Shown here: piece after piece, positions 10,636 to 13,600 of the stretch
Layout: every line of letters begins with the position of its first letter
How positions within the stretch are numbered: the stretch's first letter is position 1
From: an uncultured Lachnospiraceae bacterium
Lineage (GTDB): Bacteria; Bacillota; Clostridia; Lachnospirales; Lachnospiraceae
Length of the DNA stretch: 41,002 nucleotides
Direction: 5' to 3'
Assembly (NCBI GenBank): GCA_965646165.1
Contig: CBFFYP010000040.1
Location: 1-41,002 of the forward strand
Notes under the pieces: model-generated
What the model was told of the DNA's origin: nothing
What the model saw: only the letters and a program-made list of their open reading frames with translations
The model's database searches: none
Made by a program: the position numbers and the translations under genes

Positions 10636-13600
10636 ATGCGTAAACATACGAATTGTATAATTTCATTGTCGATGGCTTTTGTTGTATTGCTTTCAACGAT
10701 GGGAACAGCGTTTAAGTTGACCGAATCAACTAAAGCGATTGAGCCGAATAATCAACTTGATTCCATAAAGAGCGATTCGGTCGGTCAGTCTGTGCCATCA
10801 GGAGGAGCTTTGACTGTCACCATTCATGAACATAGATGGTCGGAACAATGGGAGTGCGATGAAGAATACCATTGGCATGAATGTGAAGCAGAAAATTGTC
10901 CGATCATAAACAATGATGAAAAAGATGGTTATGAAGCACACAGTTATGGCGATGGGGAAGCTTATACGGAAGATGGACAGTATTACTTTGTTCAGGATGA
11001 TAACGTTTGTATTCAGTGTCTTTATTCGAAGGCAGTGGAAAAACCTGTACAAATGAAAATGAGAGCTGTGACAACTACGACGTATCCGACTTATCAGCAA
11101 GCCTATGAAAAAATGATTAGCTTAAAGGAAAAAGCTCCTTCCGTTGCAGCTTATAATGAGCCACTTTCAGAAGGAACGACTTGGACAAATTTGACACCGT
11201 TTGGTTCCTCAAGTTCCGTAGAGTATTATGCATATAAGGGAGGAAAAATAAAAGGAGCAATTGGCGGTGTAGGCTGCGTAGCTTTCGCTTATATACTGAG
11301 TGATGAGGTTTTTGGAAATCTGCCTGCAAGGGTGATTGATAGAGGAACAGAAGAGTTTACTTTCGAAAATGTGAAAGTTAGTGATATCTTGCGTGTAAAT
11401 GGAAATAGTCATAGTGTAATTGTACTGGAAAAAACCGCAGGAGGCGTGATTGTTGCGGAAGGAAACTACAAGAAATCCATTCACTGGGGACGTGCGATGA
11501 GCAAAGATGAAGTTATGACAGCAGATTATATTGTCACACGTTATCCAAAAGGTTATATGGAAGAGAATCCAGATGCTGATGTAGTAGAGGAAACGAATAA
11601 GGGAACAATAGGGAACATTACATGGACGCTAACAAACTCAGGTACGCTTACAATTTCTGGCAAGGGAGCGATGCCAGATTTTTCAGAGAGTCGACCGCCA
11701 TGGTACGAGAAAACGTTTAGGGTAATTGTTATAGAAGAGGGTATAACCAGTATTGGTGACTATGCCTTTTATCAAGAAAAAGGGAAATCTAGTGTTCACA
11801 GCTTGTATATTCCTAGCAGTGTGGAAAAAATCGGTTCGAGTGCATTTCGTAACTCTAATTTGGTTTCCGCAGATATTCCTGGCAGTGTAGAAAGTATTGG
11901 AAATGATGCTTTCCGTGATTGTGAAAATCTTACCTCCGTAACTCTTAATGAAGGAATAAAGATTATCGGTTCGGAAGCTTTCCGTGCTTGTACAAGTTTG
12001 AATTATATTGATTTTCCTGCCAGTATTACAACGATAAATTTCGGAGCATTTATGAGTTGTGGGCTAACACGTGCGAGATTTGCACCTGGCAGTCAAAAAG
12101 TAGTATTAGGTGATAGTGTGTTTACACAATGCTGGTATTTGGAGGAAGTGTCACTTCCAGAAAATTTAGAATCATTGCCTAAAGGAATATTTGAATCCTG
12201 TAAAAGCCTTTTTTCTCTATATATTCCAAAGAGTGTAACAGAAATCGGAGCAGGTGCGTTTACATCTAGTAGCTATTTAAGCGAGATAATCTTTGGTGGT
12301 ACTAAATCAGAATGGAATGCGATTTTGAGTAAAAGCCTAGTAGCTGACAAGATTCAAATACAAAACGCAACTGTAACTTGTGAAGGAAAGCCAGAGGATT
12401 TTGTTGAAAGACATACCCATACATGGTCTCAAGAATGGACGACAGACGAGGTAGGTCATTGGCATGAATGTACTGCTTCGAACTGTGATGGTGCAACGAA
12501 AGATTATGCAGAACACGACTGGTCTTGGAAAAAAGATAACACGCATCATTGGCGTGAGTGTACCGCTTGCGGCGAAAAGAAGGATTCTGCAGAACATAAT
12601 TACAAAGATGGAATATGTGAATGTGGTGCTACCGAGGCTGAATCGGAGAATCCTGCTCCGAAGCCACATGAACATGAATGGAGTACCGAATGGATTCATA
12701 ATGGAACGCATCATTGGCGTGAATGTATGAATCCGAACGATTGTAATGGTGAGAAAGGCGATTATGCAGAACATCATTACGAAGGAAACAAATGTACCGA
12801 GTGTGGTTATACTAAGTCGGAATCGGAAGAGCCACCTGCAGCGCAGCACGAACATAAATACTCTTCTAGCTGGTTTCATAATAACGAGTATCATTGGCAT
12901 GAGTGTATGAATCAGATTGGCTGTGACGGTACAAAGGGCAGTTATGAAGAACACCAATTCGAAAATGGAACATGTAAGAAATGTGGCTATATCGAAACTG
13001 GTTCTGTGAATCCGCCTGTTTCGGATACTCATGTACACGCATGGTCTGCAAGCTGGAGTCATGACAGCAGCTACCACTGGCACGAATGTGAGGCAGATGG
13101 CTGTTCTCTTACTGACAACAGGGAAAAGGCTGGTTATCAGGCACATAATTATGGTAGTTGGGTGGTTGATGTAAGAGCAACGTCTTATCGGGATGGCAGT
13201 CGGCATAAAGAATGTACGGTTTGTCATTATCGCTTAGTAGAGAAGATTCCTGCGACTGGAAGTTCAAGTAACGACCAAAGCAGCAGCTCTAGCAGCACAT
13301 CTTCTGACACAACGGAGGAGAATTCAAATGCGTCTTCTGCGGCGACTACAGAGAAAGCAGAAACGAGCTGGTCAAATACAGCAGATGGCAAATGGCATCT
13401 GTTAGATAGTAAGAGTGGAAAGATAAAAACCGGTTGGCAGCAGACAACAGACGGCAAATGGTATCTGCTGGACAGTAAAAATGGAGATATGAAAACTGGC
13501 TGGCAGCAGACAGCGGATGGTAAATGGTATCTGCTGGATAGTAAAAATGGAGATATGAAAACCGGTTGGCAGCAGACAACAGACGGCAAATGGTATCTGC

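Follow-up and report, generated by a model that had tools for sequence, protein, structure and literature searches.

A tandem Cys/His-rich module of a Lachnospiraceae surface protein, homologous to domains of an IgA protease, as a candidate zinc-clasped stalk

Six Cys/His-rich cores and their relatives in an IgA protease

What is the Cys/His-rich module that recurs along a surface protein of an uncultured Lachnospiraceae bacterium, and what might it do there? We addressed this question in a stretch of 41,002 nucleotides (GenBank assembly GCA_965646165.1, contig CBFFYP010000040.1; hereafter the window), in which a single plus-strand open reading frame (ORF) at 10630..13890 encloses all the repeats. 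Read from TTG 10630, where our amino acid (aa) numbering starts, the product has 1086 aa. The annotated start, ATG 10636, yields a gene at 10636..13890 (+) for a 1084-aa multidomain protein, predicted to be secreted, and an identical protein is recorded from a metagenome-assembled genome (MAG; GCA_951800365.1, contig CATOJW010000019.1). From its N to its C terminus, the protein harbors a signal-peptide-like segment, one Cys/His module (M1), a CHAP-like domain, leucine-rich repeats (LRRs), modules M2a-M2b, M3, M4, and M5, a Ser-rich linker, and choline-binding repeats.

Six HW[HR]EC cores, all in the frame of the gene, were found at nucleotides 10870, 12457, 12547, 12712, 12892, and 13075, and the six-frame translation of the whole window contained no further one. 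When the protein was shuffled 20,000 times, the motif occurred once in one shuffle and never more than once in any. The repeat with fixed Cys/His/Trp spacing reported in the initial annotation is therefore real, every full module carrying 4 Cys and 5 to 8 His. Its arrangement was also described correctly, with one module N-terminal of the LRRs (M1, aa 66-132) and a five-module array C-terminal of them (M2a to M5, aa 595-875). The range given for it, 10810-13240, cuts off some 14 nucleotides of the last module, which runs to about 13254, and also spans the unrelated CHAP-like domain and the LRRs.

M1 (10825..11025, +) was matched by our local module hidden Markov model (HMM) over profile positions 2-53 (E 5e-14) and displays the pattern HEHRW..W..D...HWHEC....C...AH, a 22-aa insert, and CIQC. 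M2a (aa 595-629) and M2b (aa 629-668) form a fused double unit (12412..12633, +), detected as two overlapping HMM domains (E 6e-13 and 5e-12), in which His629 is common to the end of M2a and the start of M2b. M2a lacks a separate CxxC tail, for which the M2b knuckle Cys644/Cys647 stands in. M3 (aa 680-728; 12667..12813, +; E 2e-15), which spans 49 aa, and M4 (aa 740-788; 12847..12993, +; E 4e-14) are of a compact short-tail type. M5 (aa 801-875; 13030..13254, +), supported by the module HMM, by an AlphaFold2 (AF2) model, and by its alignment to the IgA protease domains described below, is of a long-tail type and ends in IPATG. The modules account for 32% of the protein length yet hold 22 of its 31 Cys and 34 of its 39 His. 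They share 40-62% protein identity, and their DNA similarity is patchy and confined to short matches, indicating that they are old duplications. A recent DNA-level repeat expansion was ruled out by this divergence, and so was copy-number variation of the modules, since none was seen among orthologues.

When the whole protein, and then its modules one by one, were scanned against Pfam, NCBIfam, and PHROGs, no model covered the modules above threshold, and only sub-threshold zinc-ribbon noise appeared on them, such as Pfam zinc_ribbon_6 (15.6 bits). PF27618, which was flagged on several relatives and considered as the module family, was discarded once it proved to be a faint Zn_ribbon_GTF2H2 match. 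A phmmer search against all PDB chain sequences gave a sole match, the IgA protease 9qa6_A (E 1.9e-19), with M5 aligning to residues 905-978 (domain E 1.5e-12) and 1071-1131 (1e-7), both of them ZBD regions. As judged from sequence, the modules are homologous to ZBD1/ZBD2 (= CTD2/CTD4; beta3, beta4, beta6) of the Thomasclavelia ramosa M64 IgA protease IgAse/ThomasA (UniProt Q9AES2), the counterpart of M5 within a ZBD being subdomains II and III. The initial statement that the module cannot be assigned to a known zinc-ribbon or adhesin repeat thus holds for curated models (Pfam, NCBIfam, PHROGs) but not for its homology.

Both proteins share the core H..W..D...HWHEC..C...AH as well as the M5-type tail W.VD..AT...GS.H.EC..C, both are predicted to form three-stranded sheets linked by 2His+2Cys sites, and in both the modules lie between a functional head and a wall anchor. 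However, the window protein has six cores, against no more than 2 + 1 in the IgA protease, where all are long-tail and an Ig-like domain splits them. Of the two proteins, it is the window protein that has compact modules (M3 and M4), with the third sheet reduced to one CxxC hairpin, and a fused pair (M2a/M2b), and it also differs by its Pro-rich linkers, its N-terminal copy, its head, and its choline-binding rather than sortase-type anchor.

The IgA protease domains have been described before. In AlphaFold3 models, the ZBDs are chains of three-stranded antiparallel sheets with putative tetrahedral 2His+2Cys zinc sites at the subdomain interfaces, and the authors consider subdomain I distantly similar to a TFIIS domain (PMC12237041, PLoS Pathogens 2025). 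A second study, which names them CTD2 and CTD4, showed by small-angle X-ray scattering (SAXS) that CTD2 on its own forms a fully extended rod (PMC12415215, PNAS 2025). On the basis of AlphaFold models and SAXS, both 2025 papers consider that the domains may represent a new fold, a zinc-linked rod or "periscope", and a third report refers to function-less beta-sheet domains (PMC12402451, EMBO Journal). A full-text literature search for the HWHEC motif returned nothing relevant. This kind of module was thus already noticed in 2025, in a single enzyme; what we add is the ligand logic, the minimal unit, a very large distribution, and the compact and fused variants.

Ligand columns and predicted fold of the module

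A first homologue search returned 163 proteins, and the 120 listed ones were used for an iterated local module HMM. These 120 proteins contained 387 module instances, with 1 to 8 per protein, giving 311 unique alignment rows. Three His columns (H3, 99%; H16, 100%; H32, 100%) and four Cys columns (C20, 99%; C23, 93%; C46, 99%; C49, 100%) were conserved, along with two Trp columns (W9 and W17, 88% each). The other columns mostly remained below 55%, with E19, D12 (69%), G50, Y51, G24, and A30 at 60-78%. The H16-to-C20 spacing is invariant, the C20-to-C23 spacing is 2, 3, or 5 residues, and C46 to C49 is a CxxC in 95% of the modules. The stretch between H32 and C46 falls into three classes, namely, a short hairpin of 4-15 aa (M3 and M4 type), a 22-23-aa third sheet with the motif W.VD..AT...GS.H.EC..C (M5 and IgA protease type), and a Cys-containing class. 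All six cores of the window protein have H16, C20, C23, and H32.

Rather than a 4-Cys ribbon, the best reading of the ligands is two sites per module of about 50 aa, each with 2 His + 2 Cys. Site B would consist of H16, H32, C46, and C49, all invariant, and site A of H3, C20, and C23 together with a fourth ligand that is either H1 or comes from the preceding unit. About half of the modules have H1, and eight have a Cys at position 1. Among 1,366 modules in total, those with H1 start a median of 13 aa from the previous Cys, with 0.96 Pro per 10 aa upstream, whereas those without H1 start closer to it (median, 10 aa; mode, 8) and have fewer upstream Pro (0.26 per 10 aa). H1 therefore tracks longer Pro-rich linkers, as expected if it caps free-standing segments and the preceding unit supplies the ligand elsewhere. 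In 314 of the 1,968 consecutive core pairs, the units chain directly, at a period of about 25-35 aa, and share the boundary His, as M2a and M2b do. Because such units share the boundary His, each is left with exactly 2 His + 2 Cys. In the modules devoid of C23, an Asp is found in its place (ECTAxDG; 19 of 19), and all of these have H1 (19 of 19).

Two other sources of ligands were considered and rejected. A replacement of H1 by H18 as the fourth ligand would show up as compensation, and the 2x2 table (104/39/76/47) shows none. Completion of a preceding site by the H1 of the next module was dismissed since the linkers before H1 are longer and Pro-rich and site B is already complete, with four invariant ligands. 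Taken together, the direct chaining, the linker pattern of H1, and the lack of H18 compensation support a clasp between units.

We then modeled aa 676-876 by AF2 with a 20-row alignment. The model was all beta, with a predicted local distance difference test score (pLDDT) of 81.3 and a predicted template modeling score (pTM) of 0.38; pLDDT fell to 63-72 in the Pro/Glu/Ser linkers. In each module, a strand running from H15 to C20 forms a hairpin with a second one, which stops immediately before H32, and the turn contains C23. In M3, for instance, the strand H694-C699 pairs with K709-E714. This hairpin geometry places H16 and H32 on one face at the base, and C20 and C23 at the tip beside H3, which is how the residues were assigned to sites A and B. 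A Foldseek search with the module model gave weak best matches to NrdR (E 0.43, 36 residues) and RPA12.

On this basis, the putative zinc sites are {H66, H68, C85, C90} and {H81, H104, C127, C130} in M1; {H595, H597, C614, C619}, {H610, H629, C644, C647}, and {H640, H656, C663, C665} in M2a-M2b; {H680, H682, C699, C705} and {H695, H715, C722, C725} in M3; {H740, H742, C759, C765} and {H755, H775, C782, C785} in M4; and {H801, H803, C820, C825} and {H816, H839, C862, C865} in M5. The window protein would hence carry about 11 zinc sites, which would use all 22 module Cys. Conservation and homology thus favor the structural zinc-binding repeat that had been suspected initially, in the form of 2His+2Cys sites.

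Zinc ribbons, such as the TFIIS C-terminal domain, RPB9/RPA12, and the NrdR N-terminal domain, resemble the module in their small beta-hairpins, their Cys knuckles, and their structural zinc, which is putative in the module. They are, however, intracellular and nucleic acid binding and have two CxxC knuckles (4 Cys) in one domain, whereas the modules are predicted to form tandem extracellular rods in which 2His+2Cys sites bridge successive sheets. Comparison with the zinc ribbons (Pfam clan Zn_Beta_Ribbon) found neither a model match above threshold nor a significant fold match.

Could the cysteines instead be oxidized, or the metal be another one? In such a case, the Cys pairs would be disulfides, or the 2His+2Cys sets would bind Fe, Ni, Cu, or an Fe-S cluster. 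The protein is extracellular, disulfides are the norm outside the cell in many organisms, and CxxC pairs can be oxidized. Zinc is moreover a putative metal of the module, and the IgA protease stayed monodisperse only in the presence of a reducing agent (PMC12237041). We nevertheless consider this alternative very unlikely. Under the structural zinc clasp that we favor, the zinc sites would replace disulfides in a reducing, anaerobic habitat.

A probable structural stalk and its alternatives

We propose that the modules are probably structural 2His+2Cys zinc clasps that stiffen a stalk between the N-terminal head and the choline-binding wall anchor. The basic unit would be an antiparallel beta-sheet made up of three strands and about 30 residues, with little hydrophobic core, ending in a Cys-x(2-5)-Cys knuckle. 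Tetrahedral 2His+2Cys zinc sites, each bridging adjacent small sheets, would clasp the units together at their ends, with C46/C49 of site B supplied by a short CxxC hairpin, by a longer third sheet, or by the knuckle of the next unit. In the window protein, the roughly 11 zinc sites would give four stiff segments (M2a-M2b, M3, M4, and M5) on Pro-rich linkers, plus M1 as an N-terminal cap, and the stalk would project the head, composed of the CHAP-like domain and the BspA-type LRRs, through and beyond the cell wall.

Beyond this protein, we derived a 54-position profile from 87 modules and used it to search 1.84 billion cluster representatives (50% identity clusters). The profile matched 18,655 representatives at E<=1e-3, 7,070 at E<=1e-10, and 1,455 at E<=1e-30. 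Up to 96 stretches were matched per protein (up to 58 by the count of the local HMM), and the longest module-bearing proteins reached 6,446 aa. Source names, where given, were Clostridia, Lacrimispora, Eubacteriales, and Anaeroplasmataceae. Among the top matches, the partner domains were LRR_5, SLH, Flg_new, LytR_cpsA_psr, FecR, and CBM13-like domains, and many homologues of the first search carried cohesin, Big_2, SLH, or Flg_new domains or LPXTG-like anchors. Among the 150 best-scoring proteins, 122 had a signal-peptide-like N terminus according to a crude hydrophobic-stretch rule, and the modules represented a median of 46% of the length. A C-terminal hydrophobic anchor was present in 48 of these 150, and there the C terminus lay a median of 93 aa beyond the end of the last module. 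Judging from these matches, the module is widespread, uncurated, and found mostly in secreted Firmicutes envelope proteins. Neither 2025 paper (PMC12237041, PMC12415215) reports this wide distribution.

The modules were also compared to mobile elements by tblastn. No match was found in plasmids, and the sole match in phages (MT837586.1, 5416-5580) lies on a 6.6-kb contig of human faecal origin, unannotated and recorded as "Bacteriophage sp."; the match is weak (44% identity, E 4e-5) and covers the long-tail part of M5.

Instead of spacing a head from the wall, the modules could be adhesin repeats that bind a host, matrix, or glycan ligand via variable surfaces, zinc only holding the fold. The surfaces between the ligand positions are indeed highly variable, as in some binding repeats, the modules co-occur with the adhesin-type partners LRR_5, Flg_new, and cohesin, and the PNAS authors leave further functions open (PMC12415215). 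However, apart from the ligands, Trp, and Asp, the surface shows no conserved patch, the very different heads and the presence of as many as 58-96 module stretches in a protein fit a generic spacer, and the IgA protease ZBDs are dispensable for catalysis and in vitro even hinder substrate cleavage (PMC12237041). We therefore hold repeats of this sort to be unlikely. The full predicted ligand sets, the poor conservation of the positions other than the ligands and Trp, the unrelated heads, and the placement of modules directly upstream of wall anchors all fit a structural stalk. In many relatives, too, the array stands between a functional head and the part of the protein that attaches to the wall.

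Another role, extracellular metal or ligand capture, had been suggested at the outset. The sites might be exchangeable and serve zinc capture or sensing outside the cell, as a surface zinc buffer or as a zinc-switched rod during nutritional immunity. About 11 predicted sites in one wall-bound protein would amount to a large local metal capacity, but the 2His+2Cys sets, as assigned here and as predicted for the domains of the IgA protease, leave none of the four coordination positions vacant. According to zinc-finger chemistry, 2His+2Cys sites are tight, slow-exchanging, and structural, and they are not transport sites. In addition, no ZnuABC/AdcA-type zinc-uptake genes were seen adjoining the gene, and the modules occur in thousands of functionally unrelated proteins. 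With the four positions occupied by the putative ligands, the heads unrelated, and the modules close to the anchor, capture found no support, and we regard exchangeable sites as quite unlikely.

Several points weigh against zinc clasps that stiffen a stalk. The residue-to-site assignments rest on DSSP strand pairing and conservation logic, and the pTM of the model means that the relative orientation of the modules is not predicted, although such a value is expected for beads joined by linkers. In 41 of 266 modules, site A has neither of the candidate fourth ligands, a His or Cys at position 1 or a His at position 18. The association of Asp23 with H1 comes from one subfamily and is not phylogenetically independent. 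Experimentally, the ZBDs are unseen in 9QA6, whose coordinates end at residue 876 (PMC12237041), and in the literature we found no experimental structure or metal analysis of the module, nor later experimental work. M1 is N-terminal and thus outside the stalk position. Finally, the number of Cys/His modules is constant across seven near-identical orthologues, only the choline-binding repeats varying, so that tuning of length by the Cys/His array is not seen here.

The comparison to SasG/Aap (drawn in PMC12415215) is instructive in this respect. Like the G5-E "periscope" proteins, the modules would be elongated single-layer beta repeats with no hydrophobic core that project an N-terminal domain from a Gram-positive wall, but there is no sequence or fold relationship between the two. 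The zinc sites of Aap are intermolecular, consist of partly water-coordinated His/Asp/Glu, and drive dimerization. Canonical periscope proteins have a variable number of near-identical repeats, whereas the modules are 40-62% identical and fixed in number.

A further-reaching version, in which the modules would be a new fold with zinc clasps in place of both hydrophobic core and disulfides, stalk stiffness would depend on zinc, and calprotectin-type sequestration would collapse the stalks and retract adhesins or enzymes, seems to us rather unlikely. If true, zinc-dependent stalks would mechanically link nutritional immunity to surface display, and the module would have founded an extracellular repeat family of anaerobic Firmicutes that, with 18,000 clusters or more, ranks among the largest of those left uncurated. 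Should the zinc clasps be confirmed, anaerobes would use extracellular Cys/His metal sites where aerobes use disulfides, raising the question of whether gut surface architecture responds to zinc availability. Recognizing the module would also annotate much unassigned sequence in surface proteins of gut Clostridia and correct domain boundaries there. M3, with two predicted zinc sites, and M2a-M2b, the minimal chained unit, offer compact structural targets.

Head domain, wall anchor, and genomic surroundings

Marking the module boundaries brought a hidden domain to light between M1 and the LRRs. This domain (aa ~150-306; 11077..11547, +) was identified as CHAP-like, of predicted papain fold, from its homologues, an AF2 model, and Foldseek. 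Its sequence matched no Pfam (CHAP and NLPC_P60 included) or NCBIfam model and no PDB sequence. In its 18 homologues, GxGC216xxFA..SD, H261, AEGN276-279, and IHWGR284-288 are invariant, and C216, H261, and E277/N279 follow the catalytic-type residue order of papain-fold hydrolases. The AF2 model (pLDDT 80.9, pTM 0.78) places C216 at the start of helix 83-95 of the model. The best Foldseek match, a weak one, was the CHAP endolysin Ly7917 (E 3e-3, probability 0.98-1.0, TM 0.41); the other leading matches were Tae2, C39 peptidases, Gsp amidase, LysGH15, and PlyC CHAP, all of them CHAP, NlpC/P60, or C39 proteins. The homologues also carry LRR_5, Big_2, or Cu_amine_oxidN1 domains. In two of them (P0298 and P0311; alignment A3, columns ~250-300), short Cys-knuckle pieces such as KATCTKKSYCKFC and RTCTRCG stand directly upstream of the CHAP-like domain, echoing the position of M1 in the window protein.

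The BspA-type LRRs (aa ~330-580; 11617..12369, +) were recognized by PF13306 LRR_5 (E 9e-42), and seven choline-binding (cell-wall-binding) repeats of 22 aa (13366..13869, +) by PF19127 (E 1e-28), PF01473 (E 2e-13), and PF19085. From the modules together with these two domains, the protein had been interpreted as a host- or matrix-interaction adhesin; both domains are present, but the description is incomplete because of the CHAP-like domain between M1 and the LRRs. The combination of a CHAP-like domain and choline-binding repeats suggests a wall-associated hydrolase at least as much as an adhesin; the protein may be less a pure adhesin than such a hydrolase, with the LRRs as its targeting domain. 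Pneumococcal CbpD joins a papain-fold Cys-His domain, of which the window protein has a predicted counterpart, to C-terminal choline-binding repeats. Unlike the window protein, whose CHAP-like domain is outside the Pfam and NCBIfam models, it has neither LRRs nor Cys/His modules.

The N terminus MRKHTNCIISLSMAFVVLLSTMGTAF reads as a signal peptide, and the choline-binding repeats are, by their family matches, a non-covalent wall anchor. They are tandem units of 66 nucleotides with 84-88% DNA identity, of which the repeat finder detects six copies. Their number (window 13295-13822) varies among near-identical orthologues, with products of 984 to 1084 aa. A profile search of genome contigs gave matches via the choline-binding repeats only (in Lachnospiraceae and Clostridia MAGs) and no orthologous module array; relatives of the choline-binding region occur in uncultured Lachnospiraceae MAGs. 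Upstream of the anchor lies a Ser-rich low-complexity linker (aa 876-912; 13255..13365, +), identified from sequence, and the three Pro/Glu/Ser-rich linkers of the array (11-12 aa each, +) are ATEAESENPAPKP at 12634..12666, TKSESEEPPAAQ at 12814-12846, and ETGSVNPPVSDT at 12994-13029.

As for the neighboring genes, an ORF of 846 aa (832 aa in the public record) at 6382-8922 (+) has an MVP_shoulder domain and a weak Vault_3 match, and its product would be a bacterial major-vault-protein-like protein. The following 370-aa ORF (8971-10083, +) has no Pfam match on record and contains the motif GNTDRHWGNWG, which we take to resemble the catalytic motif of HipA-type kinases. The 550-nucleotide gap upstream of the surface-protein gene holds, at about 10470-10527, the short frame AVEDLNVKGMMKCLQL, which ends in a stop and, as we read it, looks like the RuvC motif conserved in TnpB proteins of IS605/IS607; the frame may be a remnant. 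A serine recombinase (HTH_17 + Resolvase) is encoded downstream of the gene, at 14103-14816, and the surface-protein gene may be flanked by IS607-type debris.

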